64,000 nucleotides of DNA from Candidatus Marinacidobacterales bacterium (GTDB lineage: Bacteria; Acidobacteriota; Vicinamibacteria; Marinacidobacterales; SMYC01): the NCBI GenBank assembly GCA_965237955.1, contig OZ250169.1, positions 5,312,001 to 5,376,000 on the forward strand, written 5' to 3'. Numbering within the stretch: the first letter of the stretch is position 1; every line of letters begins with the position of its first letter. A program made the position numbers and the translations under genes. This document shows, in pieces, positions 9,873-56,717 of this stretch. The notes beneath the pieces were generated by a model. The model made no database searches, was not told the DNA's origin, and saw only the letters and a program-made list of their open reading frames with translations.

Positions 9873-10370
9873 TGTTTCGGTTCAGCTAGAACATGACAGT
9901 CCTGAAGTTAAAATACGCACATGGAAAAAGGAGCTGTCATGAGCAAAGGTCGTCGTCGTCACACTGCGGAGCAAAAGGCAGAGCTGTTGCGCCAGCACGT
10001 TGCCGAGAAAAAGCCGGTCTCGGAGGTATGCAACGAGGCAGAAATCCAGCCGAGCCTGTTCTACACATGGCAAAGGGAGCTATTGGCTGGAGCCCATACG
10101 GTGTTTTCGTTCCGTCGTGCGCCGAGCCGTGAGAAGGAGCTAGTCCCCTGGATCTTTGATTACTATACAAAGTTAGGCTTTTCGCCAGCCCATAAGATTC
10201 ATAAGATTCATGCACTTAGAAGGTTCTGATACAGGGGACCAGAGGGTTTCGGCAAGCTCTGCTTTATCTAGTTTGTTCTGATACAGGGGACCAGAGGAGA
10301 AGCTCTCCCGTCTCGAGGCGAAGGTGGCCCGTAAGGATCAGATCATCGCTGAGGTGACCGAAGAGTACGT
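9873..10370 (+). mobile_element. IS3-family remnant (left end plus OrfA), interrupted by a MITE
   Basis: TG-start end at 9873; OrfA from 9939 RRRHTAEQKAELLR..FYTWQRE; frame resumes after the MITE (LEEKLSRLEAKVARKDQIIAEV). Confidence 0.7.
10143..10291. mobile_element. IS630-type MITE-A copy with a 22-bp internal duplication of its right end
   Basis: Same sequence as 19190-19316 plus an extra GTTCTGATACAGGGGACCAGAG; left flank TA, right flank mutated to CA. Confidence 0.9.
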
Positions 10371-10374
10371 GATC

Positions 10375-11331
10375 TGCTGGCAGATGGCATGAACCCAATC
10401 AAGAGAGTCGAGAAAGAGGAGCGTTTCTCCGGTAAGCGGATCAGGGGGTGTGGTGAGCAAGACGCGGCTATCCTGGGTTTGGCTCACCCCGCCAACTCGA
10501 ACGGGAGCGCGGGTGAGGTAGCGGGCGAGTTTTTCCAGCCGCTGCGGCTCGTCGTCCCAGACGAGCTGCTCCGCATAGACCGAAAACACCGAAGGATTCC
10601 ATTGCAGCAACCGGTTCATGAACTCCTCGGAGAGACGCTCCGCGCGGTGTAGTCGCTCGAGCAAAAGGCGTCGGAAGCGCTCTTCGATATCTTTGAGGAT
10701 AGAGTTGGCCGGCTTGGGCAAGGGCAGAAACTCCCCCTGCGGGGTGCATCAACCACATCAGTTCGAAAACCCCCTCCATGACCAGACAATGGATGTGGGG
10801 GTGCCAATTCGCGCCGAAGGAACCAAAGGTTTGAATCGAAGACACCGAGCCGGGTCGGACGTCTGTGCGATCTAGAAGTTTCTGGAAACTCTTGTTGATG
10901 GCTTCGAAGGCTGTCTGGGAGAGAAGGCTGAGCAGGGAACGTTCTCTTTCAAACAGACCACGAAGCACTTTCGGAATGCTGAGAGTAAAGTGCCGATGGG
11001 GTACCGGTGCCAGGATCTCTTCTCTGAGTTTCTCGGCAAACAACCAAGAGCGCTTGGCCTGACAGGACGGGCAAAAGTTTCTCGATTGACAGGAGAAAGC
11101 AAGCAGATGCTCGTCCTTGCAGGAAGGGCAGCGAATCCGAGCGAAGCCTCCATGAAGTCGTCCACAATCCAAAAAGGCTTCTACCGTGGGTCGGACCACA
11201 CTTCGCAGCGGTCCCGCCTTGGGTTCGAACCGCTCCTCGTAGGCGTAGACGTAGTCGTCGAAGTGCTTCTCAAGCAAGCGGTAGAAGGCGGTTCGCTCGG
11301 GGTGCCGCGGTCGGTAGACTCCTAGCTCCAT
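10375..11331 (-). mobile_element. IS91-family (Y2, rolling-circle) transposase, frameshifted and truncated
   Basis: Zn-binding domain CGRLHGGFARIRC..C..FSCQSRNFCPSC, HUH motif WHPHIHC, LARYLTRAP. Confidence 0.85.
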
Positions 11332-11430
11332 ACAGGCTAGGAGTGACGAGTTTCAGGTTCGGAACCCCCTCCTTGAAGACCCATTTTTCGGTGTGACGCT
11401 CGGCTCAAAGGGGCGGGGGTCACGACTCAA

Positions 11431-12318
11431 ATGGCGTGCGAGCCTGCTGATGACGGCCGAGAGGAGCAGGTCGTTATCCATTGGGACTTGAAGCTCGCCA
11501 ACGTGAAGAGAAGACTCTCGGTAAGATTAAGGTCACTCCCGATGCTCGAGCTCTGGGCCACGGCCTGCTGGCTGGGAGCCACTGTAGACAAGCGCACGCA
11601 GCTCGAAAAAGACCTCAACCAGGTGCAGCAACTGGACCGCGCCCTTTTGCCGAACCTCCCACACGTCGACGGATGGGACGTCGGGCTCCACTATCGCCCG
11701 TCGCGACTCTTGAGCGGTGATTTCTACGATGTTCGTGCGGAAGACGATGGGCGTCTCACGCTCCTCGTCGGCGACGTCATGGGAAAGGGCATCCCGGCCG
11801 CGCTCCTGCGCACCGGGTTACAAAGCTCGCTCAAGGCCCTCGCGCCGGAAGTGTGCTCGCCCGCGAAAGTGCTCGAAAAGGCGAACCGCCATTTTCTCAG
11901 CAGCGCATCTCCGGGACGTCTCGCGACTGTTTTCCTCGGAGCGCTCGACACCGGAGGCGGTCAGCTGCGCTACGTCAACGCGGGGCATCTCCCACCGCTG
12001 GTGCGTCGCGCGTCGGGCGATTGGCAGGCGCTCGATACTACCGGGATGGTCCTGGGCGCGCTCGAGAACGTTCCGTACTCCGAGGAAGTGGCGACGCTCG
12101 AGCGAGGCGACTTGCTCGTGCTCTTCTCCGACGGGTTCACCGAAGCCGAGAACGGCGCGGGCGAAGTATTCGACGAGCGTCACGTCACGCGGTGCGTGGA
12201 CCAGCTACCCGGCGCGCCCGCGCAAGTGTTGGCGTCCAGCGTCGCCGAGGAGCTCGCCAACTTCGCGCCCGGTGAGCCGAGCGACGACCGGACACTCTTG
12301 ATGTTGAGGCGCACTTGA
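11431..12318 (+). pseudogene. Duplicated PP2C domain fused to unrelated upstream sequence (zinc finger lost)
   Basis: Identical to 5200..6054 from RTQLEKD onward; new N-terminus includes a kinase-like VIHWDLKLANVK scrap. Confidence 0.7.
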
Positions 12319-12697
12319 GCGAGTTCGAACGGATCGTCGATCAGCTGGAGCGAGCCTATCGAGGCGAAGCGTGGCACGGGCCGTCGATTCGGGAAGTTCT
12401 GGATGGCGTCGACGCGGATGCCGCGTCCGCGCGTCCTGTCTCGAATGGCCACACCATCAAGGAGCTCGTCGTCCACGTCCTCGTGTGGGAGAAAGAAGCC
12501 CAGGCTCGCCTCGCGGGCAAAGGCCGAGACGACCTGCCTCCCGAAGACACGGTGTCATCCAACATCACCTCTACCACGCCGGACAGATGGCCATTCTCAA
12601 AAAAGCGCTTACAATAGGTTGCGTCGGGAGTGGCTACTTGTGAGCGAGGAGCGGCGCGCGCGAGCGAGGGAGATTCTGCAATGCGCCCTGGCGAAAA
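11591..12697 (+). repeat. 1107-bp direct repeat, copy 2
   Basis: Matches 5327-6433; this copy continues into the interrupted kinase N-terminus (KKSDERTQFLRDAC). Confidence 0.95.
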
Positions 12698-12888
12698 AGT
12701 CCGATGAAAGGACGCAGTTTCTTCGCGACGCGTGCCAGAGCGATCCCACGCTCATCCCCGAAGTCGAGCTAGCGACACGGCCAAGGCAGGATTAGAGCCG
12801 ATGGCGCCGTGTGAGCACGTAGGCATTTCCCTACGCATCGTGAAGTTGGACATTACGTAAATGACTGCAAACATTACTACCTACTGCC

Positions 12889-12904
12889 CGGCACGCCGAT
12901 TGCA
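12889..12904 (+). promoter_or_regulatory. Sigma-54 promoter (-24/-12)
   Basis: CGGCACGCCGATTGCA, GG-N10-GC, matches the TGGCAC-N5-TTGC consensus; 12 nt before GTG 12917. Confidence 0.65.
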
Positions 12905-12916
12905 AAACGGAACGAC

Positions 12917-13480
12917 GTGAAGACGGTTCTCGATCTACTCAAGAAATACGACGATCTGAACGAAGCCAAGATCCGTGGCGGCGGGAAACTCTCGCCCGAG
13001 GATGAGGAGCGCTGGGAAGAGTTGAAGGTCGTCTACGACCTGCTCATGTTCCACTCCGGACTCACGAGTGAGAACGCAAGCGCCCCGTTCTCGCCTGCGG
13101 AGCTCCGCGAGACACTCGCCGATGAGACGCGACTACGGGTTCCCGTCGAAGCGCACGCGATGGTCGAGCACGAAGGCGGCTCCTTCGACGCTAATGTCGT
13201 GAACGTGAGTCGCGGCGGCGTCTTCCTCGCGTCCGAGACTCTCGCGTAGGCTGGCTCCCGGCTGACCCTCTATCTCGTAGGCTTGTCCGACGACGATGAC
13301 CCCGGCGACATGCTCGAGCTCACCGGCGAAGTCGTCTGGTGTGCCGAGGAGGGGATTCCCGAAGCCCGCATCCGGCGCGGCATGGGAATCCGTCTCGTCG
13401 ACGTTTCGGAGGAGACCGGCGAGCGTTTGGAGTCACTCGTCGTCAAGACGATCGAGAAACGACTCACCCGTTTCGGCTGA
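12917..13480 (+). pseudogene. PilZ-domain protein split by an in-frame TAG (13247-13249)
   Basis: RLRVPV..NVSRGGVFL * ..LTGEVVW..GMGIRL all in one frame. Confidence 0.75.
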
Positions 13481-13498
13481 CAGCCTGACAGGCTGACG

Positions 13499-17158: not shown

Positions 17159-17162
17159 GCGC

Positions 17163-18344: not shown

Positions 18345-19190
18345 ATGGCTCGATTGGCTCACATCCGAAGCTGGGGCGTGGGGCTCGGGCTGTTGGTTCT
18401 TCTCGCCGGTAGTTTCTCCGTAGTGGCGGCTCAAGGTCGAGGCTGGTGGAACCGCGTCCCACCGCGGTTTGCGGAGCCGAACACCCCGTCGAACGACTTG
18501 TTCTCGTTTTGCCGCATCCTCTACGAAAGCGTGCGTCGTGAGCCTTCTGGCTATGGGTGGAACACCGACTACCCGTACTCCGACATCAATTTCATGACGC
18601 GTTTCTCGCAACTGACGACGGCGAAGATCCGTCGTGACGGCGATGGCATGCCCCAGCACGTGGTGGTGACGCTCTTTGACGATACGATCTTCGAGTATCC
18701 GTTCGTCTTCATGTCCGACGTCGGCACCGTTGGCTTCAGTCCAATGGAAGTCGAACGGCTACGGGACTACCTTGTCCGAGGCGGTGTCTTGTACGTGGAC
18801 GACTTCTGGGGAGAGCGTGCGTGGGAGCATTGGAAGCACGAGATCGGTAAAGTTCTTCCGCCGGATGACTATCCTATCGTCGACGTACCTCTCGATCACG
18901 TCATCTTTCGCACGTTCTACACGATCCGCAAAGTCCCGCAGATTCCGTCGATCCACTATTGGCGACGCTCGGGAGGGAGCAGTACTTCGGAGAGAGGGTG
19001 GGAGACCGCGGAGCCTCACTTCCGCGGTATCTTCGACGAGCACGGTCGGTTGATGGTGATCATGACCCACAACACCGACATCGCTGACGGTTGGGAGCGC
19101 GAGGCAGAAGAAGAAGAGTACTTCTACCGATTCTCGCTCAAAGCCTATCCCGTTGGCGTGAACATCGCGATCTACGCGATGACGCACTAG
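18345..19190 (+). CDS. DUF4159 domain protein
   Basis: WNTDYPYSDINF, LRDYLVRGG..DDFWG, HNTDIADGWE, GVNIAIYAMTH. Confidence 0.85.
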   Translation: MARLAHIRSWGVGLGLLVLLAGSFSVVAAQGRGWWNRVPPRFAEPNTPSNDLFSFCRILYESVRREPSGYGWNTDYPYSDINFMTRFSQLTTAKIRRDGDGMPQHVVVTLFDDTIFEYPFVFMSDVGTVGFSPMEVERLRDYLVRGGVLYVDDFWGERAWEHWKHEIGKVLPPDDYPIVDVPLDHVIFRTFYTIRKVPQIPSIHYWRRSGGSSTSERGWETAEPHFRGIFDEHGRLMVIMTHNTDIADGWEREAEEEEYFYRFSLKAYPVGVNIAIYAMTH

Positions 19191-19316
19191 TCCCCTGGAT
19201 CTTTGATTACTATACAAAGTTAGGCTTTTCGCCAGCCCATAAGATTCATAAGATTCATGCACTTAGAATGGTTTCGGCAAGCTCTGCTTTATCTAGTTTG
19301 TTCTGATACAGGGGAC
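19190..19316. mobile_element. IS630-type MITE-A (127 bp)
   Basis: GTCCCCTG...CAGGGGAC ends, TA duplicated (19188-89, 19317-18) in CTAG context. Confidence 0.92.
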
Positions 19317-21302: not shown

Positions 21303-22946
21303 ATGAAAAAAATATTGTGGCTGCCTCTGTTCTTCGCCGCAGCCTGCCAGCCCCGCGAAGCCGATCGTTTCCGGGTGGTCGAGGCGACCATCGCCGATAT
21401 TCAAGAAGCCGTTCTCTCCGGACGGACGACATGCCGTGGGGTGGTGCAGGCGTATCTCGAGCGCATCGAGGCCTATGACCAGCCCACCGGTCTCAACGCG
21501 ATTACGGTGGTGAACCCCAATGCCTTGGAAACCGCCGATGCGATCGATCGCGCGATCGCGAACGCTAAGGACGACGAGCTCGGACCGCTCTTTTGCGCTC
21601 CCATCCTCGTGAAGGACAACTTCGACACCCACGACCTGCCGACGACCGGGGGATCGATTGCGCTCATGGACAGCATCCCGCCGGACGATGCGTTCATGGT
21701 GCGAAAGCTTCGCGAGGCGGACGCGATCGTCATCGCCAAGACCAACATGGCGGAGTGGGCGTTCAGTCCCCGTCGTACCGAGAGCTCGTCCTACGGCACC
21801 ACCGCGAATGCGTACGCGCTCGATCGCGTTCCCGCGGGCTCGAGCGGAGGCACCGCGTCGGGCGTCGCGGCGAGCTTCGGCGTGGCCGGACTTGGCTCGG
21901 ATACCGGTAACTCCATCCGTGGTCCATCATCGCACCTTGCGCTTTTCGGGATCCGCTCGACGATCGGTCTCACGAGCCGCGACGGTGTCATTCCCCTCGC
22001 TTTCGATCGTGATATCGCGGGCCCGTTGACGCGAACCGTCGAAGACGGGGCCAGGGTCTTCGACGTCGTTGCCGGCTACGATCCCGCGGACTTCTACACC
22101 GAGCTCGGAAAAGGCAGACGCGAGGCCGATTACACGAGCTTTCTACGCGCGGACGGTCTCGAAGGAGCGCGCCTTGGAGTTTTGCGTGCTCTCGTGGATA
22201 CCGAGGATGCCGCCGCCGAAGTCATCGCGTTGTTCGAGGTAGCACTCGAGGAGCTCCGTGCCGCGGACGCGGAGATTATCGACCCGGTTGTGATCGACAA
22301 CTTCGCTTCTCACCTAGATGCGAGCAACGGGTGCCCGCGCTTCCGCTACGACATGTTCGTCTATCTGCAATCCCTGGGCGATGACGCGCCTATTGAAGAC
22401 GTGATGGAGGCGTACGAGAACGGCGATTATTCGGACTACGTCGCGAGCCGGCTCGAGCGCCATCAGGACCGACCGCTCGACGTGGCGCCTGCCGACTGGG
22501 ATCCTCCGTGTCCCGACTATGCCGATCATCCTGGCCGTCAGGCATATTTGGCGGACGTCGTTGCAGCGATGGATGCCTCGGGCGTGGATGCGCTCCTCTA
22601 TCCGACGTGGACGAATCCTCCCGCCCATATCGACCGGCCGAGCGAAGAGTACAAAGGCGACAACAGTCAGCTGGTCGCGCCGGCGACGGGCATGCCCGCC
22701 GTGACCGTGCCCATTGGTTATTCATACGACGGCCTTCCCGCCGGGCTTCAGATCTTGGGACGACCTTATGCGGAGGGTCGCCTCATCGAGCTCGCCTACG
22801 CGTACGAGCAGGCGACCCATCACCGGCTAGTCCCCCGGATCTTTGATTACTATACAAAGTTAGGCTTTTCGCCAGCCCATAAGATCCATAAGATTCATGC
22901 ACTTAGAAGTGTTTCGGCAAGCTCTGCTTTATCTAGTTTGTTCTGA
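21303..22946 (+). CDS. Amidase-signature family lipoprotein; C-terminus replaced by MITE read-through
   Basis: Lipobox AAAC, VKDNFDT, GSSGGTA, GSDTGNSIRGPSS. Confidence 0.9.
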   Translation: MKKILWLPLFFAAACQPREADRFRVVEATIADIQEAVLSGRTTCRGVVQAYLERIEAYDQPTGLNAITVVNPNALETADAIDRAIANAKDDELGPLFCAPILVKDNFDTHDLPTTGGSIALMDSIPPDDAFMVRKLREADAIVIAKTNMAEWAFSPRRTESSSYGTTANAYALDRVPAGSSGGTASGVAASFGVAGLGSDTGNSIRGPSSHLALFGIRSTIGLTSRDGVIPLAFDRDIAGPLTRTVEDGARVFDVVAGYDPADFYTELGKGRREADYTSFLRADGLEGARLGVLRALVDTEDAAAEVIALFEVALEELRAADAEIIDPVVIDNFASHLDASNGCPRFRYDMFVYLQSLGDDAPIEDVMEAYENGDYSDYVASRLERHQDRPLDVAPADWDPPCPDYADHPGRQAYLADVVAAMDASGVDALLYPTWTNPPAHIDRPSEEYKGDNSQLVAPATGMPAVTVPIGYSYDGLPAGLQILGRPYAEGRLIELAYAYEQATHHRLVPRIFDYYTKLGFSPAHKIHKIHALRSVSASSALSSLF

Positions 22947-22956
22947 TACAGGGGAC
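22830..22956. mobile_element. IS630-type MITE-A (127 bp)
   Basis: Near-identical to 19190-19316; TA duplication 22828-29/22957-58. Confidence 0.92.
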
Positions 22957-26247: not shown

Positions 26248-27527
26248 GCAGACAACGTCTCGTCGCTGCACTCGTCGGTGGCCTCGCGATCGTCGGTGTC
26301 GTTGCGATCACTCTCTACGAATCCAGTGAAGAAACAGTTCCGCTCCTCGAGGTTCGCATGGAACCGTTCCAGCAGCGGATCACCGCGGAAGGTGTGCTCG
26401 AAGCCGTGCGCTCGACGCCCCTGTCGTCGCCGCCACGGACCGAAGGCCCGGCCAAGATCGCGTGGATGGTCGAAGACGGGATCGTCGTCGAGCAAGGGGA
26501 CATCATCGTACGCTTCGATCCCACCGAACGAGAACGAGAGCTTCTGGAAGGAGAGGTGGCGCTTTCCACGGTCGAGAGCAAAATCCTGCAGAGCCAGGCC
26601 CAGACCGAGGCCTCGTTGCACGACGTGGAGCGCGACCGCCAACTGGCCCAGTTCGAGCTCGATATGGCCCGGAACTTCTCGAGCAAGGATCCGGAAATCT
26701 TCTCCCGGATGGAGATCATCGAAGCACAGATCGACGAAGAGCTGGCGGGTCTCAAACTCGAGCACGCCGAAGGCAGCGAACAGATCCAGGAGAGTCTCTC
26801 CGCGTCCGAAATGAAGCTTTTCAACATCGAAAGAACTCAGGCGGAGGTGAAGATTCGTCAGGCCAACGATGCGCTCAACGCTCTCGAAGTTCGCGCACCG
26901 CACGACGGCATCGTGATCTTCGTGAGGGATTGGCGCGGTAACATAAAGCAAGTTGGAGACACGGTCTACTCGAGACAGGCCATCGCCGAGCTTCCGGCCC
27001 TGGACATCATGAAGGCGGACATCTACGTGCTCGAAGCCGACGCGGGCGGACTCCAGGAGGGCCGTCCGGCAGAGCTTATCGTAGAGGCGGCACCCGAGCG
27101 TTCTTTCAGCGCGACGATCCGATACGTCGATCGTATGCCGAAGCCCAAAGTCCGCGGCGTTCCGGTTCAATACTTCTCGGTGACGCTGGGCCTGGAAGAA
27201 ACCGATCCCGAGATCATGAAGCCGGGGCAACGGGTGCGGGCCACGCTTGTCCTCGTCGAGAGCGATGCCGCTATCGTCGTCCCGCGTCAGGCCGTCTTCG
27301 AAAAGGAAGGCAAGAAGTTCGTCTATCGGGTCGTCCATCGGCGGGGCGGGTCCGGCTTCGAGGAAGTCGAGGTGAGACTCGGGCCGTCTTCTTTTGGGCG
27401 GGTCGTGCTCGAGGACGGTATTTCCGAAGGCGATACGATTGCGCTTCGCGATCCGGCGCGATCCCGCCGGGCGCTCGTGCCGGGTGCCGGCGAAAGCGCT
27501 TCCGATACGACTCCGAGCTTCCCATGA
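26244..27527 (+). CDS. Periplasmic adaptor (membrane fusion protein) 3
   Basis: TM anchor, EDGIVVEQGDIIVRFD, RAPHDGIV, MKPGQRVRA. Confidence 0.87.
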   Translation: MSRQRLVAALVGGLAIVGVVAITLYESSEETVPLLEVRMEPFQQRITAEGVLEAVRSTPLSSPPRTEGPAKIAWMVEDGIVVEQGDIIVRFDPTERERELLEGEVALSTVESKILQSQAQTEASLHDVERDRQLAQFELDMARNFSSKDPEIFSRMEIIEAQIDEELAGLKLEHAEGSEQIQESLSASEMKLFNIERTQAEVKIRQANDALNALEVRAPHDGIVIFVRDWRGNIKQVGDTVYSRQAIAELPALDIMKADIYVLEADAGGLQEGRPAELIVEAAPERSFSATIRYVDRMPKPKVRGVPVQYFSVTLGLEETDPEIMKPGQRVRATLVLVESDAAIVVPRQAVFEKEGKKFVYRVVHRRGGSGFEEVEVRLGPSSFGRVVLEDGISEGDTIALRDPARSRRALVPGAGESASDTTPSFP

Positions 27528-32713: not shown

Positions 32714-35514
32714 ATGAACACCTCGAATCGAGTGGGAGTATGTGGAATCTCGTTTGGCTTGGTGGTTTTGCTAACCGCTTGGAGCGCGACGGCGCTCGCT
32801 CAGTCAAAACCAGAACCAATATACGCAATCATCGTCGAAGAGGACGTTATGATCCCGATGAGCGACGGGACTCTGCTCGCGACGGACGTCTACCGTCCCG
32901 ACGTGGAAGGGAAGTTCCCCGCCCTGGTCGAGCGAACCCCCTACAACAAGTCGAGTTTCGTCGGCAATGCTTATTTCGCCGAACGCGGATACGTGTATGT
33001 GGAACAGGACGTGCGGGGCCGCTTCAAATCGGCGGGGGTATTCTACCCGTTTCTTGACGATGCATGGCTCGAGCGCCGCGATGGCTTTGACACCGTGCAG
33101 TGGATTGCCGAGCAGCCCTGGTCGAACGGCGTTGTTGGCGTGACAGGCGGATCCCATTCAGGCCAGACCGCCTATATGATCGGACCGACGCAGCCGCTCG
33201 CGATGAAAGCAATATTCGCCCGCGAGTCGGCGTCGAATCTTCGCGACCATTGGGTCTTTCGTGGTGGCGCCTTCGAGCACGCCTTCATCACTGCATGGGC
33301 AACACGCATGTTCGGGCCCAATATCGTCGAACGGGCGTACGAAGGCGAGAAAAAGGAAAATGAGCTGTCCAAACTCGCGTCTGCCGTCGAGGACCAGGCT
33401 AACGCCTACTGGCACCTGCCGCTCAGCGAGTACCCGGTTTTCAAGTCAACACCGGGCTGGCAGTTCTACTACGACTGGGTGACCAACGCGAATGACGGTC
33501 CGTACTGGTGGCGGCAAGCAATCGAACTGAAGCATAACCGCTTTGCGGTGCCTGTGTGCCACCTCGGCGGTTGGTTCGACATCTTTCTGGACGGGACCAT
33601 CAAGAATTTCGTCGGCATCCAGAAAAATGGCGCCACGCCTTTGGTCCGCAACAACCAGAAGCTAATTATCGGTCCGTGGTACCACGGCCCGTCCAATGTC
33701 GGAAAGACAGAAGTCGCCGAAATGGTATACCCCGGGGCGGACACGTATCCCGACGGGGAGGAGCTCAATTACGACACCCTTCGGCGGAAGTGGTTCGACG
33801 TTTGGAACAGAGCGCAGGATACCGGCTTCATTGACGAACCACCTGTTTTAATCTACGTGATGGGTGACAATAAGTGGCGCTTCGAGAACGAGTGGCCGCT
33901 CGCCCGCACCCAATACACCAACTATTATTTCGGCGGTGGCCGGTCACGGCCGTCCTCTACGGTATGTCGTCTGCGGTGGACACCGACTGGGTCGTCAAAC
34001 TTAGCGAAGTGTACCCGGATGGCCGCTCGATGCTAGTCCCCTGGATCTTTAATTACTGTCCAAATTCGATTTGCCATGTGTATCGAGCGTTCGCTGGGCG
34101 AACCGAGCGATGGTTTCGAGGATTTGGTCGGCGGATTTCGCCCACTTGAACGGCTTTGGGTTCTCGTTGTGAGCATCGAGATAGTCTTGTATCGCAACGC
34201 GGAGCTGAGGCACGCTCGTGTGCGAGCCTCGTCGCAAGGCGTGTTCGGTGAGCAAGCCAAAGAAGCGCTCAGCGAAGTTGAGCCAAGAGGCGTGTGTCGG
34301 TGTGAAGTGAAAGTGGAACCGAGGTCGCTTGGAAAGCCAGCGTTTGATCGCCGGTGTCTTGTGCGTGGCGAGATTGTCGAGCACGACGTGGATGTCCAAC
34401 TCGCTGGGAACGGCTGCTTCGATCTCAGCGAGGAACTTCTTGAACTCTAGCGCTCGATGTCGCGCGTAGCACTTTCCGAAGACTTCACCTGTTGCGGCGT
34501 CGAGTGCGGCAAACAGGTCAGTCGTTCCATGCCGAATGTAGTCGTGGGTTTGTCGCTCGGGCTGGCCCAAGCTCATGGGCAGGACAGGTTGAGCACGCTC
34601 GAGCGCTTGAATCTGCGATTTCTCGTCGACGCACAGGACGACCGCGTTATCCGGTGGGTTCATATACAGGCCAACAACGTCGCGTACTTTTTCGACCAGT
34701 TGTGGGTCTTGCGAGAGACGAAACGATTCCGAGCGGTGCGGTTGAAGCCCGAACGTTCGCCAAATACGTCCAATCGTCGAATGACTCAGCCCAAGATGCT
34801 TGGCCATCGAGCGCGTACTCCAATGGGTTCTCCCCTTTGGAGTCGTCTCCAGCGTCTTGGTCACGACTTCCTCGATCTGGTCATCGCCGATTTTGCGAGC
34901 CGCTCCCGGCCGAGGTTCGTCGTACAACCCTTCCATTCGTTGTTCTACAAAGCGTCTTCGCCACTTGCCCACCGTGCTCCTCATGGTGTGCATCTTCCTA
35001 GCAACTTCCATATTCGTCAGACCCGCCGCGCAATCCAGCACGATCTTCGCTCGGAAGGCTTGGTGCGGCGAACTACGGCTGCGTCGCGCCAGTCGCGTCA
35101 GCGCTTCGCTTTCTTGAGACGACAGCTTCAATTCGGCTTTTCGCCGGCCCTTGTGTTTCATGCATTTAGCAGATCACAGAAGGGCCGGTGTTGTCTAGCT
35201 TTTTATGTTCCATGGGACTAGTAGCCGACGGTATTCTCAGAGCGCGTTTCCGCGACTCCCAAACGAGTCCGACATTGATCGAACCTGGCAAGATTTACAG
35301 GTACGAGGTCGACCTGTGGGCGACTAGCAACGCGTTCAAGGCAGGGAACCGTATTCGAGTCAGCGTCCACAGCAGCAATTTCCCACGCTGGGACCGTAAT
35401 CTCAACACTGCGGAGAGTCCTGAAACGGGGGCGAAGTCGGTGGTCGCGCTTAACACGATTGTCCGCTATGAATTGCGGCCCTCGCATATCGTGCTGCCAA
35501 TTATTCCGCGCTGA
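32714..35514 (+). pseudogene. Second CocE/NonD hydrolase, internally deleted (~33940) and split by IS630
   Basis: ERTPY, QDVRGR, GGSHSG, GPWYHG; C-terminal domain DTDWVVKL..GRSML|VADGILRARFR..SSNFPRWDRN rejoins across IS630. Confidence 0.85.
34036..35218 (-). mobile_element. IS630-family insertion sequence (1183 bp), transposase 34049..35161 intact
   Basis: [27 protein letters not shown]; ends GTCCCCTGG/CCATGGGAC; TA duplication 34034-35/35219-20. Confidence 0.95.
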
Positions 35515-42533: not shown

Positions 42534-45500
42534 ATGAAAAATCATTTGATTCTGTTCTCTGTTGCCATTTTCCTGGTGGTGGCGTGCTCCGATACGAAGA
42601 CGAATAAGGATAGCGCTGTATCGGTGAATGATGATGCCGGTCCCGAATCGGATGAGCGCCCGGACTATACCTCCAGGGTGCCGAAGTTTACCTTTGCTTC
42701 CACCCTGGAAGAGCAGGAAGAACAACTCAAAACGAATCCACTGATCTTACGGTTCAAAGAGTCGCGGGCGAAATTGGCTGCTGATCCCCATGTGCCTCTC
42801 TATCATTTTGTCAGTCCCGAGAAGGGCCTCAACGATCCGAATGGACTGAGCTATTGGCAAGGTCGCTGGCATATGTTTTATCAGGGCTATCCGCCTGAAG
42901 ACCCGCGTCAGCATTGGGGCCATGCGGTAAGTGATGACCTGATCCACTGGCGGGATCTGCCCTACGCCATCTATCCCAATCCGGAGGACAGATGCTATTC
43001 AGGCTCTACCCTGGTTGAAGAAGACCGGGTGATCGCCATGTATCACGGCACCAAATTGGGCAACATGGTTGCTGTCTCCAGCGACCCCTTGTTACTCAAC
43101 TGGGAGAAGGTGACCGATGGGGCGGTGATTTCCAGAGGATGTCAAGGAATTAGTTGAAACCATCATAAGCGACTCGTGGTCATTTCCAGCTCTACGCCCC
43201 TGACCTTACGCGGCCTCAGGCATCTCGTCCTCTCGTTGGATCGCATCGATGGCCGCAACCACTACGTCGATGGATGCGTGCCCCTTGACTCGTCTGAACT
43301 GTTGTTCGCAGTGCAGCAGCACAGCGGCGAGCCATCGCTGGCGCATTTTGCTGTTACGGTAGCGTTTGATGTTGCGCTCGCAACTACGAACCATGGAGAA
43401 CATACTCTCTATAGGATTCGTCGAGTGCAGGCTCTGGCGCAGTAGAGCGGGGACCTTCAACTTGTGGAGCATCAGCACCTCCTCGAGTGCCTCGAGGAGT
43501 GAGTCTGCCGCCGACTCGTTGATGTCGCGAAGCCAGCGCTCGAACTCCTGCAACATCTTCTTCGCGTCCTTGTAGCTGTTCTGCTCCAAGGCAGTCGCGA
43601 AGAGGTGGTGTACCTGCTTGCGGTAGCGTTTGGGCAGGTGGCGCTGGATGTTGCGGTCTTTGTGCAAAGTACACCGCTGGTGGATGAGCTTCTTGCCGTA
43701 TCGGTCTTTGAGCGCCTTGATGATCCCCCCGCCACCATCGGTTACCCAGAGGATCCGTTTGGAGAGCTTTAACCCCCGTCGCTCCAACTCTTCCAGCAAT
43801 TCCTCGCAGATCTCGTGGTTCTCCGTCGCCCCTTCCCAGAAGCCCAGGGGGAGCTTTTTCCCTTCACGGTCCACGCCGAGCGCGACCACGAACGCCTGAC
43901 CGCCGCGGTGGACCGTGTCTAGGTACATCGCGAAGAGCGGAAACTCTTCGAGACTGCGCTCCTGGAACTGCTTCAGCTGCTTCGCCGTCGCCTCGACCAG
44001 ATGGCGGGACACCGAGCTCGGCGTCACACCGAAAGCCTTGCCTGCCGCCGTCACCGTCTCTTCGTACTTGCGAGCAGACATTCCCCGAAGCACCTCCGAC
44101 AGGAGTTCCTCCGAAAAGCCCCCGCGATTCTTGAGCTGCTCGTAGGTTCTCAGCCCGACCTCACCCTCCGGGCCCCGCAATCGAGGGTGCTCGACAGGGA
44201 GCTTCTGGTCACCGACATAGATCGACCCACGTTGACTCGCCCATTTGCGAAGCCCGGACGACGTAGGATGGTAGTCTGGCCCAGATCTCTCTTCGCGCTC
44301 CATGTACATGAGCGTCTCAGCTACCAGGCGTCCGACATCGAGCATCACGGCGTCCAGCGCTCGCTTGCCCTCCAGCATCACATGCACAACTTGATCCGCC
44401 CACCACTCTTGCTCCTGCGTCGCCCTCAGCATCTGTGTTGCATTCTTTCTCTTCTTCGTATCTGCTCTCACCGGGTGGCTCCTTTCTTTTTGATCGCCAG
44501 CTTTGACACCGACGATCTTGAAGGGAGTCACTCACCGATTTCAACTAGATTCAGGATATCCTCGATTTCCAAGTATCCGGGTGAAGACGGAAAACCCCTT
44601 CCCTACGGGGTATACGATCCCAATATCTGGAAAAAAATGGGGTCTATTACTCTCTTTCGGCTGGTCAGCTGCCAAGAGGGCCCGGGGGTAAGTCTACTCG
44701 CGCCAACTGGCTGTTTCGTTCCAAAGACCTGGCCCATTGGGAATATCTTCATCCTTTTATCGAGAACGATCAGTATTCGCTGGTAGGGGATGATGGCGCC
44801 TGTCCTTATTTCTGGCCCCTTTGGGACAAGCACATATACCTGCAATTCAGCCACATGAGCGGGGGGAAATACCTGATCGGTGACTATGAAAAGCAGCGGG
44901 ACAAGTTTGTGGTCACTGCCGGTGGAGACTTCAATTTCGGGCCTTACAGTCCTTCTGGCGTACATGCACCATCTGCCACGCCTGAACCTGCTGAGCACGG
45001 CGGCGCCGGCCCTTCGGGTGCCGTTGACGGCGCTGTTATCGCGATCTTTAACATGAATCCCGGCAAACCTACGGAGGGCTGGAATCAGATCATGACCCTG
45101 CCGCGGCGCCTGACCTTGCTACCGCAAGGAAGCCTGGACAACCTCGGCATCGAGCTGGTAGGGGATATTGGCTCCTTGCGATACGGTCACAAAAACCTGG
45201 GGCCCATGACCCTGCCGGCCAACCAAGAATTGGTACTCGATGGCATCCGCGGAAAAGCCATGGAGATCATTTTGGAAGTCGACACGAAGGAGTCACCGAT
45301 GGTTGAATTGGACGTCTTCCGATCTCCGAATCGGGAAGAAGTGACCCGCATCCTGTTTTATAGGAACAATGGCTACCGGCACAATGAACTAAAATATGGA
45401 GCGGATGGTCGCGGAAAGCGCAATAGCTTGATCTCGATTGAATCTTCCGCCTCGTCTGTTCTCCCCGATGTTCAGTTGAGAGCCGCAGAGACCGCTAATG

Positions 45501-45717: not shown

Positions 45718-47329
45718 GTCCCCTGTATCAGAAGTACGTCACCAAATTCTAGGGGGAGGTGCCCCCACCATAGTTGAAGGTTCGAGGTGGTGGCGGCTCC
45801 TGACACATGGTTTACCCGACTTTGGCGTGCTTGTCGAGCGCTTGATTCTCAGTGACCTCCGCTAACTTCGCTTCGAGGATCGGTAGCGATTGGTATCCAA
45901 TGATACGACGGAAATTTTTCTCCGTGGCGAGCAGAGCCGAAGCGGCCCATCTCAGAACCATCTTGCCATTGCGCCAGCGGGTGACGCGACGGGTACGACC
46001 TCGCGCACCGCTGAAGCACGACTCGATGATGTTCGTCGATCCAAGGCAGCGTTTCAGAGATGCGGGGAGGTCGAGCTCGTTGATGGTGAACATCTCGTCG
46101 AGCCCCTCCCGGATGCTCTCCGCCGCCGAGGGGTAGTCGTCCTCGAGCCACTTCGCCTGTTGCTCCAACCGCGCTTTGCCCTTCTTTGCTGGGAGCTGCC
46201 AGGCCGAACGCAGGCTCGCTTGCACTTGCGGCTTCAGCTCCTGCGGCAGATAACCGAGCACATTGCGCTCCTTGTGCTTCCTGCAACGCTGGACCTTGTT
46301 GTGGGTACCGAACACAGCGTCGACGGCGACCCGTAGCGCCTTGGAGCCATCGATCACGAACAGCCGACACCGCTCTGGGCTCAGGCCTCGTTCGACCAGG
46401 TCCTCCAGCAGCGCCTTGCACACTATCTGGTTCTCCGATGCTCCATCCCGAAGCCCCAGAACATGCTTGTATCCCTCTGTATCTACGCCGATTGCCGCCA
46501 GCGCGTGGTGCACGCCGAAGCGAATCCCGTCCAGGTACACGACCGCGATCTCCAGCTCGTCCAGCGGATGCTCCATCAGCCCCTGCAACTGCTCCGCGCT
46601 TGCTTCCACGAACTCACGGCTCACCTCGCTCTTGCTAACCCCTACCGTCTCCGCCATCTCGGGAAGAACCGACGCGTACTTGCGCGTCGACACACCCAGC
46701 ATCAGGATTTCCCAGATGCGTTGGCTCAGCCGAGACGAGTTGTTCACCGCTTCGTAGGCAGGAATCGCAACCTCCCCTCCCTCTGCCTTTCCCTTACGCC
46801 GCAGACGTGGCCGGCTCACTCTCAACTTCCGCTCCGCAAGGCTTACTACGCCACCCTGCCGGCCGTGCCAGCGAACATCGCTACCCTTCTTCCCCGGGTG
46901 TTTCTCCCCAGCCACACTTTGGGCTGACAGATCCAAGACCGCTTCGATCGTCGCTCGGCCAGCAACGTCGATCACTTTGTCGATCGCTATCTCGGTTCGC
47001 TCAATCGCATCCAAGAACGGCAACAGAGCTTGCCCCTTCGAGCTCAGTATCTCTCGAAGCTTCTTCCTGTTCTTCGCATCGATGATTTGGTAATTTGACA
47101 TCGTGGTGGCTCCTTTCTTTTTCCTTCACAGCCGGATTCTATCGAACCCGGCCTTAGGAGCCGCCACTCCTAACCTTCAACTATCTCAGGGGCATCTCCT
47201 TCTAGGGCGCTTTTGTGCGCTGGACGTCGTTGCAACTCCTGGGAATATCTAGAGATGACTTCGTCGTTGCGCCTCGCAGCGCGTAAAATCACCTCGAGCC
47301 TTTGGCCACGAACCTCTGATACAGGGGAC
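45718..47329. mobile_element. IS630-type MITE-B (~159 bp without the nested IS256)
   Basis: Perfect 15-bp IR GTCCCCTGTATCAGA/TCTGATACAGGGGAC, TA duplication 45716-17/47330-31. Confidence 0.85.
45755..47199 (-). mobile_element. IS256-family element, transposase 45812..47101
   Basis: IRs GGAGGTGCCCC..ATAGTTGAAGG / CCTTCAACTAT..GGGGCATCTCC; 8-bp duplication TTCTAGGG; YLDG, VIDGSKAL, QRCRKHK, STNIIES. Confidence 0.94.
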
Positions 47330-50968: not shown

Positions 50969-51532
50969 CTACTCGAGACAGCCCATCGCGGAGCTTCCGG
51001 CTCTGGACATCATGAAGGCGGACATCCACGTGCTCGAAGCCGACGCGGGCGGACTCCAGGAGGGCCGTCCGGCAGAGCTTACCGTAGAGGCGGCACCCCA
51101 GCGTTCTTTCAGTGCGACCATCCGATACGTCGATCAGATGCCGAAGCCCAAGATCCGCGGCGTTCCGGTGCAATACTTCTCGGTGACGCTCGGCCTGGAA
51201 GAAACCGATCCCGAGATCATGAAGCCGGGGCAACGGGTGCGCGCCACGCTTGTCCTCGTCGAGCTCGACGCCGCGATCGTCGTCCCGCGTCAGGTCGTCT
51301 TTGAAAAGGAAGGTAAGAAGTTCATCTATCGGGTCGTCTATCGGCAGGGCGGGTCCGGCTTCGAGGAAGTCGAGGTGAGACTCGGGCCGTCTTCTTTGGG
51401 GCGGGTCGTCCTCGAGGACGGTATTTCCGAAGGCGACGCAATTGCGCTTCGCGATCTCAAGGTTCGCCAGGATCTTTTCGGGTACGACGCGACTCTCGGT
51501 CAGACGCTGAAAGTCAACGATGTGTGGTTGGA
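50969..51532 (+). pseudogene. Diverged partial copy of adaptor-3 (26966-27453) joined to a permease piece (28003-28077)
   Basis: About 30 substitutions in 488 bp by hand count; junction at 51456/51458. Confidence 0.9.
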
Positions 51533-51646: not shown

Positions 51647-52186
51647 CTACGGGTCCGGCTGAACCACACCGATATAAGGAAGCGTTCGATACCGGTCGGT
51701 ATAGTCCAGGCCATACCCGACCACCCATTTGTCCGGGATGGTGAAGCCCAAGTAGTCGATCGAAACCGGTACTTCGAGGCGGTCGGGTTTCTGTAGCAGC
51801 ACACACGTCTTGAGTGATGCCGGCTCGCGCGCGGCGAGGGTTCTTAGCAAATATTCGAGAGTCTTGCCCGAATCGACGATGTCCTCGACCACGAGCACGT
51901 GTTTACCACGAAGAGGTGCGCGGACATCGAGGACGAGGCGTACCGCTCCACTCGTCGCCGACGCGTCTTCGTAGCTCGAAAGCGCGATGAAGTCGACACG
52001 CCGGGGAATGGTGAGCCGACGTGACAAATCCGCGAGGAAAATGAACGCGCCTCGCAGGACGCCGAGCAAGTACACGTCCTCGACGCCTTCGGCTTTGTAG
52101 TCGGCGGATATCTGCGTCGCCAGCTCGGTGACCCGATCGTGGAGCGCCTCTTCGCTCAGGAGAACTTCGAGCTCAGGGGTTGGCAT
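51647..52186 (-). CDS. hpt: Hypoxanthine phosphoribosyltransferase
   Basis: GVLRGAFIFLADL, VLVVEDIVDSGKTL, WVVGYGLDY..RTLPYIG. Confidence 0.95.
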   Translation of the reverse strand: MPTPELEVLLSEEALHDRVTELATQISADYKAEGVEDVYLLGVLRGAFIFLADLSRRLTIPRRVDFIALSSYEDASATSGAVRLVLDVRAPLRGKHVLVVEDIVDSGKTLEYLLRTLAAREPASLKTCVLLQKPDRLEVPVSIDYLGFTIPDKWVVGYGLDYTDRYRTLPYIGVVQPDP

Positions 52187-53275
52187 TGGTCCTTCTCGTT
52201 ACCGGAAGCGGTCGTGCCTTGAATTTGTCGTAGAGCTTGGTGTGGCGCGAGCTCACGTCGACGCGTCGGCCGCGGATCAGGACGTGTCGTACTTGTGTGG
52301 GCACGTCCAGGAGGTCGCCGTCGGAGACAACGACGTTCGCCACTTTTCCGACCTCGAGGCTGCCGTAGTCGTCGCCGACGCCCAGAATATCGGCAGCGCC
52401 TTTCGTCATCGCGTGCCACGCTCGCTCGCGCGGTAGGCCGAACGCGACCGCCATCCCCGCGGTGTAGGGAAGGTTTCGCGCGTTGGTCGCACCGCCGGTA
52501 CGGAAGCAGGAGGCAACACCAGCGTCTTGCAGTAGGCTCGCGGCTGTGAACACCGCATCATACGGATCTCCCGGCGCCGGCCGGCTTTCGAGCGGGCCGA
52601 GAATGACCGGGACACCCGCCGCGGTGATCGCATCGACCGTTCTCCACACGTCGCGCGTTCCGACGAGAATCGCATCGAGGCCGAATTCGTCGGCGAAATC
52701 GAGCGCGGAACGAATCCCATCCTCGCTGTCCGCTTGGAGGAGGACTGGAAGCTCACCCCGAACAACAGGGACGAGTGCACTAAGCTCGTCATCGTCGTCG
52801 TTTTCAGACGGCTGGTTGTGACCGTTCGCGATAGCGCCGGCGTACGCTTGGGCGCGTCGCATCCAATCGTGCAGTGTCTTCCGATCGGTCTCGACACGCT
52901 CTCTTGCCTCCTTCGCCTCCTTGTCAGGCAAGAGCTCGAGGATTTCCGGGAAGTCGATCACCATCGCCACCGGACTTTTGGCAACGACCTCGGGAGCGGT
53001 CCACCCTGTCATGTCGATGAGCGCGGCTTGACCCGAGATGAGTCCGCCGGCGGGAGCGGTGATCGCCGTGGTCACGCCGTTGGCGCGGGTGACCGGCAGC
53101 ATTTCGGAGTGAGGATGAACCGCGACCGCCGCTTTGACGCTCGCGTTGACTTCCTGAAGCTCGCGCACGTCTTGCGTTGCGGAGACGGCGCCAATCTCGG
53201 AGATTCCGAGTGTCGTTCCCGCATTGATGATGCCTGGAGTCACCACTAGGCCTCGGGCGTCAATGACCTCGGCAG
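52173..53275 (-). CDS. Amidohydrolase-family domain (degenerate metal site); likely C-terminal part of the upstream gene
   Basis: IDARGLVVTPGIINAG, RANGVTTA, GSLEVGKVANVVV; its N-terminal beta-strands lie in the upstream frame. Confidence 0.8.
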
Positions 53276-56161
53276 TGTCGGCACGTCGAGGTCGGTCCCG
53301 ACCGCCGCGATCCTGCCGTTTCTGATGAGCACGGTACCGCCTTCGATAATAAGGCCCGCCACGGTGACGACGCGGCCACCGACGATCGCGATGTCGCCCG
53401 AGCTCTCGAGCGCTGGGCTTTGGACGTCGCCGTACCCCATGGGGCTCGGCGAAGCGTCGGGCACCGTCCATGGTGCGAAACGCTCGTCGAGACCGTCTCC
53501 GTTCGTCGGCGTTGCATCCTCGCTTGTCGGTTTCGCGAGCGTTTGGAGCGCCTCGGTCGTGGTCTCGACTCTATCGCGGTCGAAGTAGATCTGGCCGTCG
53601 ACGAAGGTCATGCTGACTTGAGCATCGGCCGAGAACGGATGTGCGGTGTAAATCGCGAGATCGGCATCCTTGCCGACCTCGATGGAGCCGATGCGGCCGT
53701 CGAGACGCAAGTGTTTCGCCGGATTGAGCGTCACCATCTTCAACGCCTCTTCTTCGGAGGCACCTCCATACTTCATCGCTTTGGCCGCTTCGACGTAGAG
53801 ACGGCGCGTCATCTCGCCGAGCGCATCCGAGTTGATCGAGGCAACGACGCCGCGGTTCGCCATCAGCGTCGCGTTGTATGGGATAGCGTCGAACGCTTCC
53901 ATCTTGTAGCCCCAGCTGTCGGCAAACGTGGAGCCGCCGGCTCCGTGCGCTGCGATCTCGTCGGCGACTTTGTAGCCTTCGAGAACGTGTTGGAGCGAGG
54001 CGATTCGGAACCCGAAGTTTTCGGCAACACGCAAGAGCATCAGAATCTCGTCAGCCCGGTAGCAATGAGCGTGCACGAGAATGCTGCCATCGAGGATCCC
54101 TACGAGCGCTTCGAGTCTGAGGTTTCGTCGCGGCCGCATCGGATCTTCACCGCGCGCTTTCGCGTCTTCGTAGTCCTCCCACTGGGCCTGGTATTGCTGC
54201 GCCTGGGTGAAGCTCGTTCTCAGCGTGAGCTCGACTCCCATGCGGGTGGCGGGGTAGCGCGCCGGGACACCATCAGGCCGCCCGCGGTTGGTTTGTTTTG
54301 GATTTTCGCCGAGCGCGAACTTGACCCCCGGCTGCGCTCCCTCGACGAAGAGATCGGCCGCGTCTTTGCCCCAGCGCAGCTTGATTACGACGTTTTGGCC
54401 GCCGATGACGTTGGCCGAGCCGTGGAGCACGTTGACGGTTGTGACCCCACCGGCGAGAGCACGCAGGATCGAGGGGCTTCTGTGGTCGATCACGTCGGCG
54501 ATGCGGACTTCGGGGGTAACCGGGCCCGTGGACTCGTTGTCGTCACCGGCGACAGCGATGTGGATATGGGCGTCGACGATGCCCGGCATCACGAACATGC
54601 CGGTCGCGTCGATTTCCAGCGCGCCCGCGGGGATGGCGACGTCGGCGTCGGGACCCACCGCCTCGATCTGGCCCTCATTAATAATGACGGTCCCGGAGGT
54701 GATGGTGCCGTTCGTGACCGTGAGGATGGTGGCGTGGCGAATGGCGGTGGCCGGAGCTTCCGGCCACAGCGGACCCATGGGGGCGCGCCGTTCCCAAAGT
54801 GCGCGCAGGTCGCGTTCTGAGGGGGCGGAGGCGTCGTCGTCTTCGACTTTCTCCTCGGCGGTTTTCTTTGGTTCCGCGGTGCTCTCGTAGAGCCGGCCAT
54901 CGATCCACGTGGCGGCGACGCGTCCGTCGTCGAACAGGTTGCCGTCGACCGCGACGATGTTAGCTGCTTTACCTGGATCGAGCGTCCCGAGACTCGCGTC
55001 CAGCCCGAGAAATCTCGCGGGCGTCACCGTCAGGGCTTCGAGTGCAGCTTGTTCGGGCAGTCCGGCGTTCACCGCCGCGCGCAGGTTCGGGAGAAATTTG
55101 TCGGTCGATACGAGTCCTTCGGAGGTGAACGCGAATCGCACGCCGGCGGCGTGCAGCAGAGCCGCGTTCGCCTGTGCGTCTGTCTTGTCGTCCGCGCCCG
55201 GACTCAGCATCAACCCGCCGGGCGCTTGCCGACCGAAGTTTGCGGGATCGCGCCGCGGTCGGTGGTCGAGCGACACCAGCACCGGGAGTCCGCTCTCCGC
55301 GAGCACGTCGGCGACGCGCCAGCCGTCGATGGCGCCACTCACGATGGCATCGATGCTGAGCTCGTCGGCGAGACCGAGCGTACGAAGAATTGCGTTGTCG
55401 GACCACGCCGAGAAGACGACTTGCTGCTCGTTGTTCGCGGCGGCGCCAAGAGCGGCCAGGCTTTCGTCGAACGGTGGGCGCTCGAGTGCGTCGGGGGTTT
55501 GCGCGTAGCGCTCCCATGCGACTTGGTACCAACCGGCGTCCGAAAAACTCTGTCGGACGGTAGCGAGAACACCCATGAGCGTACCTGGATAGTCGTTTCG
55601 CTGGCGCGAGAACGGGTCATAGGCGATGTGTTGTGCCCACGGCTCCTTGAGAATGAGCTCGTCGATGCGACCATCGCCAAGGGCGATCACGGCACTCTGG
55701 CCACGAAGGATGCCGTCTGGCCGTGCGATCGCCGCGACGGTAACGCCCATACGACGGTACGCTTCCAAGCTGTCGCTGTCGTGCGCGTAAAGAGCGGATG
55801 CGCGCACGTTCGCTTGCAGACCCGGCGTCGGGTCCCCACGTTCACGCCTCTCGGCGGCCTCTCGGGCGGATTCTTGTTTCGGTTTCGACATGCCGAGCGA
55901 GGAGTGAGCGTCGATGAAACCCGGGTAGAGCGTCCATCCAATGGCATCGATTGCGATCGCGTCCGCCGGGGTGTCAACGTTGGCACCAACAGCGGCGATG
56001 CGTCCGTCCCGCATGACGAGGGTGCCGGACTGGATGATCGGGCTGCTCATCGACACGATGCGCGCGTTTTGGAGCGCGTAGGCCGGTGGCGACGCCGGTG
56101 AGGCTACGAGGGTCGGCGCGAGAGCCAGCGCCGACAACAACATGCTGAGACGTTTGGGCAC
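53246..56161 (-). CDS. Secreted multi-domain amidohydrolase (imidazolonepropionase-like fold)
   Basis: Signal peptide after GTG 56161 (RBS GGAGG); PGFIDAHS and PGIVDAHIH domains; KFALGENP, HCYRADE, GSIEVGKDAD. Confidence 0.88.
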   Translation of the reverse strand: MPKRLSMLLSALALAPTLVASPASPPAYALQNARIVSMSSPIIQSGTLVMRDGRIAAVGANVDTPADAIAIDAIGWTLYPGFIDAHSSLGMSKPKQESAREAAERRERGDPTPGLQANVRASALYAHDSDSLEAYRRMGVTVAAIARPDGILRGQSAVIALGDGRIDELILKEPWAQHIAYDPFSRQRNDYPGTLMGVLATVRQSFSDAGWYQVAWERYAQTPDALERPPFDESLAALGAAANNEQQVVFSAWSDNAILRTLGLADELSIDAIVSGAIDGWRVADVLAESGLPVLVSLDHRPRRDPANFGRQAPGGLMLSPGADDKTDAQANAALLHAAGVRFAFTSEGLVSTDKFLPNLRAAVNAGLPEQAALEALTVTPARFLGLDASLGTLDPGKAANIVAVDGNLFDDGRVAATWIDGRLYESTAEPKKTAEEKVEDDDASAPSERDLRALWERRAPMGPLWPEAPATAIRHATILTVTNGTITSGTVIINEGQIEAVGPDADVAIPAGALEIDATGMFVMPGIVDAHIHIAVAGDDNESTGPVTPEVRIADVIDHRSPSILRALAGGVTTVNVLHGSANVIGGQNVVIKLRWGKDAADLFVEGAQPGVKFALGENPKQTNRGRPDGVPARYPATRMGVELTLRTSFTQAQQYQAQWEDYEDAKARGEDPMRPRRNLRLEALVGILDGSILVHAHCYRADEILMLLRVAENFGFRIASLQHVLEGYKVADEIAAHGAGGSTFADSWGYKMEAFDAIPYNATLMANRGVVASINSDALGEMTRRLYVEAAKAMKYGGASEEEALKMVTLNPAKHLRLDGRIGSIEVGKDADLAIYTAHPFSADAQVSMTFVDGQIYFDRDRVETTTEALQTLAKPTSEDATPTNGDGLDERFAPWTVPDASPSPMGYGDVQSPALESSGDIAIVGGRVVTVAGLIIEGGTVLIRNGRIAAVGTDLDVPTLPRSLTPEA

Positions 56162-56197
56162 GGGGACCTCCTCTAAAAAAGGGTGGTAGCGTAACAT

Positions 56198-56555
56198 ATG
56201 AAAAACGCGCAACAAGACAAAGCCGCACGCTTTCGGGCGCTCCACGAGGGGCCGGATGTCCTCGTGCTGCCGAATGCGTGGGACGTTGCGACCGCAGTGC
56301 TGATGGAAGATGCCTGGTTTTCCGCGGTGGGGACAACGAGCGCCGGAATGGCGGCGCTCTACGGCTACCCCGATACCGAAGGTGAAAGAGCTCGGCGTTG
56401 CACGGGTGAGCGTCGGAAGCGCCATCGCGCGCGCCTCGCTAGCGCTGGTACGGGCTGCAGCCGACGAGCTACAAACCCACGGAACGTAGCTTCGCCGACA
56501 AAGCGATCCCCTACGACGAGGTCAACGACCTGCTCCGTCGCCGAGCCGATGGCTG
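56198..56555 (+). pseudogene. Isocitrate lyase/PEP mutase family remnant
   Basis: FRALH..LVLPNAWD..GTTSAG..GYPD then jumps to the C-terminal RVSVGS. Confidence 0.7.
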
Positions 56556-56590
56556 ACGGCCGATGGCGCACCTAAGCTAGTCCCCTGCTA

Positions 56591-56717
56591 GTCCCCCGGA
56601 TCTTTGATTACTATACAAAGTTAGGCTTTTCGCCAGCCCATAAGATTCATAAGATTCATGCACTTAGAAGGGTTTCGGCAAGCTCTGCTTTATCTAGTTT
56701 GTTCTGATACAGGGGAC
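56591..56717. mobile_element. IS630-type MITE-A (127 bp) preceded by an extra end stub CTAGTCCCCTG (56577-56587)
   Basis: Near-identical to the other copies; TA duplication 56589-90/56718-19. Confidence 0.92.

Follow-up and report, generated by a model that had tools for sequence, protein, structure and literature searches.

Four copies of a short repeat lie within a 64,000-nucleotide stretch of DNA (the window) alongside an insertion sequence of the IS630 family with similar ends. This locus raises the question of what the repeat is, how it arose and which transposase moves it. A preliminary description had proposed a MITE family and its likely autonomous IS630 partner. We followed the proposal through the source genome (G000; one contig of 8.13 Mb, 98% complete, 6.2% estimated contamination), other genomes of the order and the contigs of four runs from four studies (X1, X2, X3 and X9, chosen from 20).

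Results

A 127-bp repeat with the features of a MITE

The repeat occupies these positions of the window:

10143..10291, plus strand: MITE copy of 149 bp with flanks TA/CA, inside an IS3-like orfA (HTH_Tnp_1) gene, which is broken
19190..19316, plus strand: MITE copy of 127 bp in C-TA...TA-G, inserted at the stop codon (TAG) of a DUF4159 gene, with the stop regenerated
22830..22956, plus strand: MITE copy of 127 bp in C-TA...TA-G, near the 3' end of an amidase gene
56591..56717, plus strand: MITE copy of 127 bp in C-TA...TA-G, in the final codons of a class V aminotransferase gene on the minus strand

Judged from sequence, the repeat has the features of a prokaryotic MITE: it is shorter than 300 bp (127 bp), has no transposase gene but only a 12-codon relic ORF, carries terminal inverted repeats (TIRs) and a TA duplication with empty sites, and occurs in multiple dispersed, homogeneous copies. 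The TIRs had been described as imperfect and about 30 bp long, and indeed the two ends share a perfect 8-bp tip and agree at 20 of 30 nt. The predicted fold of the whole element is a single long, imperfect hairpin (about -39 kcal/mol, a value computed with no shuffle control). A reading of the MITE as a portable promoter found no support (0 sigma-70-like sites).

The positions of the four copies stand as first given, and so does the length of 127 bp for three of them; the 10143 copy, at 149 bp, is the exception. It contains an internal 22-bp duplication made of its own right end and a few flanking bases, and the same insertion is found at G000:6589707 without this duplication. Its right flank reads CA and 18 of 19 empty paralogues of the site read CTAG, so that the right TA has mutated as had been suspected. 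Two of the other copies alter gene ends: in the amidase gene the last 10 residues are swapped for a 38-residue tail encoded by the MITE, and the aminotransferase gene has a new short C-terminus at the 56591 copy. Directly ahead of this last copy, 11 bp of its left end are duplicated in tandem.

Copies and target sites across the genome

BLASTN of the source genome returned 118 copies, 62 on the plus strand and 56 on the minus strand, in agreement with the expectation of many more copies genome-wide. TA stands on both sides in 111 of the 118, CTA on the left in 115 and TAG on the right in 114. The 107 intact 127-bp copies fall into 46 haplotypes, lie on average 1.5 nt from the consensus (mean divergence 1.2%) and include 23 that equal it, as would be expected of the recent amplification first proposed. 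With 118 copies and such low divergence among the intact ones, the window repeats are not a product of chance.

Matches spanning the insertion site were at first obtained for 37 copies, of which 11 were removed as tandem self-matches or for identity below 90%. This left 26 of the 118 copies with an empty paralogue (at least 90% identity), and in 24 of these a single CTAG is present, showing that insertion adds exactly TA. Flanks and empty sites together thus confirm the duplication of TA within CTAG, and empty alleles, a check that the preliminary description had asked for, exist both as paralogues in the source genome and in run contigs. Contigs of X2 and X9 lack the 22830 insertion: they skip 129 nt (127+2) at joints whose short side measures 26 nt in X2 and 46 nt in X9. 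For the 19190 copy no empty-site joint was among the joints listed for the run contigs.

By a home-made gene caller, 33 of 113 MITE sites fall inside coding sequence as against 51% of the other CTAGs (Fisher p = 2.6e-6), a depletion that fits selection against gene disruption. Of the 113 sites, 14 coincide with stop codons and 9 fall within a gene's final 15 codons. The MITE is one among many expanding elements, since 31-mers occurring at least 5 times make up about 16% of the genome.

Some arrangements are more complex. Tandem MITE pairs are found at G000:C1:1748111/1748240 and 3644259/3644388 with CTAG recreated at both junctions, and CTAG is likewise recreated at both junctions of tandem MITEs or MITEs abutting IS630 ends at C1:974797, 4360963, 4414803, 7615380 and 7626200. 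At C1:5695174 and 8062548 the MITE is flanked by CTA..TAG, yet the empty paralogues listed read CCAG/GCAG or GTAG; perhaps the site had mutated to CTAG before insertion.

The resident IS630

The window also contains the element that was proposed as the partner:

34036..35218, minus strand: IS630-family element of 1183 bp in C-TA..TA-G, interrupting an S15 peptidase gene; likely autonomous partner
34049..35161, minus strand: IS630 transposase ORF of 370 aa, intact, with N-terminal HTH and DDE_3

The element had been called intact, a description borne out by the 370-aa ORF, which scores 282 bits on NF033545 (cut-off 100) and carries Pfam DDE_3 and HTH_32 domains. On known motifs we take D179, D262 and E298 to be its putative catalytic residues. 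Membership of the IS630 family is seen in the HTH and DDE transposase above cut-off, the imperfect TIRs (the two ends agree at 17 of 30 nt) and the TA duplication. There are 38 full-length copies in the source genome, 32 with an intact transposase and 37 flanked by CTA..TAG, and the 33 copies of 1183 bp that were measured lie 0.19% from their consensus. Runs X3 and X9 have contigs with an empty 34036 site, in an allele with two synonymous differences and no CTAG.

Probable origin of the MITE from a sister IS630

The left end of the MITE matches the 3' end of the IS630 at 26 of 29 nt. Its right end matches the 5' end at 21 of 28 nt in a hand count of the window copy and at 22 of 28 when consensus is compared with consensus, and the end matches first reported (26/29 and about 21/28) are thus reproduced. 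Over the outermost 16 nt the right end agrees with the resident element at 13 of 16. The collinearity extends inwards: the MITE consists of about 86 nt collinear with the 5' end of the IS630 and about 31 nt of its 3' end, the 86-nt part spanning the inverted repeat, the leader, the ATG and the first codons, which now end in a stop:

19220..19258, minus strand: transposase-start relic in the MITE, an ATG and 12-codon mini-ORF, MNLMNLMGWRKA-stop, including a 9-bp tandem duplication

The alignment becomes nearly gapless once this 9-bp duplication is taken out, and five natural MITE copies of 118 bp in the source genome are without it. In this form the MITE reads MNLMGWRKA-stop, aligned to the start of the IS630 transposase. 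When the ends were excluded, the interior of the MITE aligned to the beginning of the transposase gene; the local score of this alignment, 58, was reached by 0 of 2000 shuffles. This homology of the interior to the 5' end of the IS, down to the ATG and first codons, suggests that the MITE is likely an internal-deletion derivative of an IS630.

Its identity to the joined ends of the resident element is about 78% (counted from the alignment), so the parent is likely to have been a relative, a sister IS630, rather than the resident element itself. Over the outer 16 nt of the MITE, four IS630s from JGI metagenomes with about 80% amino-acid identity (L066, L067, L076 and L077) agree at 16 of 16 positions but do not match the leader, and over the subterminal bases the sisters score 21/28 overall as against 22/28 for the resident IS. 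A closer sister (about 85-89% DNA identity) is present in all four runs examined; contigs of X1, X3 and X9 carry a sister 3' end that continues the left 31 nt of the MITE (90% likeness), and one sister-type 5'-end remnant remains at G000:5805249. The exact parent was not recovered, the sister 3'-end patterns being unmatched in the retrieved loci and in the other genomes of the order.

Which transposase moves the MITE

A tBLASTN search of the source genome found no other IS630-family transposase with related ends; a second IS630-type family there is about 26% identical and has unrelated ends. The partnership first proposed therefore stands insofar as the resident IS630 is the sole end-matched element found in the genome, although the MITE probably does not descend from it. 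Two MITE copies are inserted in copies of the IS630 and five adjoin its ends, with one CTAG common to both, indicating that both elements use the same target. The two also covary between runs: the share of window-type IS630 as against the sister is 83, 88, 29 and 2% in X1, X2, X3 and X9, and that of the source genome's MITE allele at 19291 is 91, 100, 52 and 4%, where shares are summed contig depths and not copy numbers. With n=4 runs, of which X1 may be the source sample, this covariation is a weak pointer, since shared host lineage alone would produce the pattern. There was no RNA run among the runs listed as carrying the element. The sole end-matched candidate, the common CTAG target and the covariation in four runs lead us to favour movement of the MITE in trans by the resident 370-aa IS630 transposase, to which we would give a probability of roughly 0.78.

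A second MITE family and other features of the window

The 8-bp tip of the MITE recurs in a second repeat:

45718..47329: member of a second MITE family (160 bp, GTCCCCTG ends), diverged and split by an IS256 nested at about 45749-47205

This family has 15 copies in the source genome (for example C1:1421395-1421554), is strongly palindromic and shares both the 8-bp tip of the 127-bp MITE and the CTA..TAG flanks; for the window member, identity is about 78%. The interior of the 160-bp MITE gave no convincing homology to the resident IS630. It likely uses the same transposase as the 127-bp MITE. In G008, pairs of ends about 163 bp apart have termini similar to those of the 160-bp MITE. Other short or truncated elements have GTCCCCTG ends and different interiors (L065, L071, L072 of 233 bp, L041, G000:C1:2830240 and 7899307), which points to more MITE types from this IS630 clade.

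The window is rich in other repeats. IS256-family transposases lie at 45749-47205 and 43206-44531, the first of which recurs in over 30 near-full copies, about 99.5% identical, in the genome, and an IS110-family transposase above the NCBIfam cut-off at 60311-61588 (minus strand). A perfect direct duplication of 1107 bp (5327-6433 and 11591-12697), containing SpoIIE-type phosphatase genes, brackets IS3-like and IS91-like elements; a truncated IS91/ISCR-like transposase at 10468-11331 (minus strand) adjoins the IS3-like element disrupted by the MITE. A 488-bp repeat of 94% identity (26966-27453 and 50969-51456) pairs an efflux membrane-fusion gene with a partial second copy. The long ORFs at 6139-7863 (plus strand) and 58794-59993 (minus strand) have no Pfam or NCBIfam match and may not be real genes.

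Spread across genera and families

Of 54 other genomes of the order, 7 were found to carry full-length MITE copies. They belong to five genera and two families, and their best identities are 94-98%; recA of these carriers is 77-82% identical to that of the source genome. Copy counts for other genomes are lower bounds taken from the best 15 or fewer candidates per genome. In a phylum sample of 400 other genomes no MITE was among the best 2 candidates per genome, and a scan of genome contigs with an allele-specific 21-mer, a probe that says little on range, gave 1 stretch only.

For the queries used, no intact close transposase was among the matches listed in the seven carriers. One carrier (G012) has a 79%-identical transposase copy with a stop codon and another (G015) an end fragment; the other IS630s of the carriers are 32-42% identical and their ends differ where readable. 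The MITE variants of other genomes fit the resident IS end at 22-25 of 28 positions, compared with 22 of 28 for the variant amplified in the source genome; that the amplified allele fits no better than the older ones counts against the pairing with the resident IS630. Automatic TIR calls were used only where both ends were evident, and the end scores of two G015 copies were left out.

Among the at least 37 full-length copies in other genomes 24 were examined, and 14 of these have flanks shared with DNA of the source genome, mostly multi-copy. One insertion has the same flanks at more than 99% identity in two families (L003 and L006). These shared flanks and the common insertion suggest that the MITE likely travels between hosts inside shared mobile DNA. 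Loci L002-L060, from other genera and families, contain many repeats and stretches of several hundred bases that are 95-100% identical to the source genome, which suggests an order-wide pool of mobile DNA.

Alternative explanations

The burst may instead have been driven by a sister IS630 (about 85-89% DNA identity) that this genome no longer has or that the assembly lacks, with the resident element as a bystander. The 16/16 match of the MITE outer ends to the four metagenome elements, the closer sister in all four runs and the sister-type remnant at 5805249 would all agree with this, and divergence is higher among the MITE copies (1.2%) than among those of the resident IS (0.19%), so that part of the burst may predate the resident IS. 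We nevertheless consider a sister-driven burst unlikely. No sister transposase was found in a single-contig, 98%-complete genome, and the 23 of 107 copies that equal the consensus argue that movement was very recent; in X9, where the sister dominates, the MITE allele of the source genome is rare (4%), and the subterminal bases of the sister fit no better overall.

The copies could also have multiplied mostly without transposing themselves, carried along by other mobile DNA or spread through recombination. Host DNA has indeed duplicated some of them (5322143 with 6589707; 2926039 with 7904154), and flanks are shared with the source genome in 14 of the 24 examined copies elsewhere. Most of the 118 flanks in the source genome are nevertheless unique, with strict CTAG and TA duplication, and the same host site is filled in both orientations in different copies, which requires independent insertions. 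Passenger spread is thus largely refuted for the source genome by the unique flanks and is highly unlikely as the main route; it probably explains travel between genomes. Retention of the MITE for a host function, as a structured RNA or terminator, would accord with identities of up to 94-98% across genera, the long hairpin, one terminator-like site and the 14 of 113 sites on stop codons. We regard it as very unlikely because the hairpin follows from the inverted ends, MITE positions vary from population to population, insertions disrupt genes as well as other IS elements, the MITE has no Rfam match and full-length copies were not found in most genomes of the order. An artefact of assembly or binning, in the repeat itself or in its distribution over genomes, has next to no probability: the estimated contamination of 6.2% and the probable metagenomic assembly of genomes with many near-identical repeats in common might raise the suspicion, but the 46 haplotypes have distinct flanks, the MITE turns up in the contigs of all four runs, each from a different study, and in L074, a metagenome contig of independent origin, several copies are on single-contig genomes, and copies in other genomes are mostly different alleles (another base at the diagnostic site in 19 of 24). 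Movement by the resident IS630 transposase is the reading that we carry forward.

Discussion

The MITE belongs to an ordinary kind of element, pairs of IS630 and MITE being already well described. Its sequence was unmatched in plasmids, phages and E. coli, as well as in viral contigs searched with one degenerate end pattern, and no Rfam family matched in the window. The suggestion that the element is unnamed thus holds for Rfam, plasmids, phages and E. coli, the collections covered. Nothing among plasmid records covers 80% of the IS630, the best places being 64-66% identical. In a literature search with most subscription journals outside its scope, we found no paper on the 127-bp MITE and no mention of 'Marinacidobacterales'. 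ERIC is likewise 127 bp long; with no BLASTN match in 20,395 E. coli records at E <= 1, the MITE is not detectably ERIC or MITEEc1. The IS630 of Shigella sonnei reportedly prefers CTAG, as does the resident IS630 here.

Several known systems are comparable. RUP, a 107-bp repeat of pneumococci, resembles the MITE in being a short high-copy repeat that disrupts genes and has inverted ends like those of a co-resident IS630 (IS630-Spn1), and its mobilisation in trans is hypothesised (PMC3049150). The same paper describes RUP insertions as largely old, about half being common to all strains (PMC3049150), whereas the 127-bp family is young; in our MITE the deletion origin is visible in the kept ATG and first codons. 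MITEPlu5 (123 bp) and ERIC, with the CCC-type IS630s of Photorhabdus, are similar in size, duplicate TA, share with IS630 ends a run of C near the terminus and reach hundreds of copies (PMC6267812). The strict CTAG target sets the 127-bp MITE apart from them. ISY100 has a comparable HTH and DDE transposase, moves by cut-and-paste and duplicates TA; 30-bp ends suffice for a mini-ISY100 and the TA is a true duplication (PMC2170065). In contrast to ISY100 and IS630, the partner here is a natural MITE.

If our reading is correct, an internal deletion of a sister IS630 would have produced a non-autonomous 127-bp transposon, and the present pairing would be cross-mobilisation by a cousin IS630. By analogy with the biochemistry of ISY100, the HTH domain would bind the 24-30 bp ends, and double-strand breaks would excise the element before its insertion at TA (PMC2170065). 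Copy number would rise when the donor site is repaired from the sister chromosome. The MITE probably reached this lineage aboard shared mobile DNA and would then have been amplified together with the resident IS630, while selection likely removed many insertions inside genes. One possibility, which we offer tentatively, is that a dormant, low-copy MITE hops between hosts via a shared pool, outlives its parent and bursts on meeting any sister IS630, with different end-alleles amplified by different sister transposases (the 19291 allele by the resident element, the other allele by the sister).

For the study of such pairs the locus is an unusually well-resolved case: the likely origin by deletion can be seen in the sequence, one transposase, intact in 32 copies, is the sole candidate found, empty sites exist, a second MITE family is likely dependent on it, and MITE and transposase alleles come in natural pairs. 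It offers a ready test of trans- and cross-mobilisation. What is unusual about the 127-bp MITE is the occurrence of near-identical copies in other genera and families. In a census of prokaryotic MITEs these elements are short, carry TIRs, are mostly intergenic and multi-copy, as here, and 98.2% of clusters at 95% identity are confined to one genus, mixed-genus clusters being known exceptions (bioRxiv 10.1101/2024.01.18.576219). Found in several genera and in two families at identities of 95% or more, the 127-bp family differs from the genus-restricted majority described there, joins the mixed minority and is a counter-example to the use of MITEs as genus-specific markers. Its presence across families points to heavy gene flow among uncultured Acidobacteriota.
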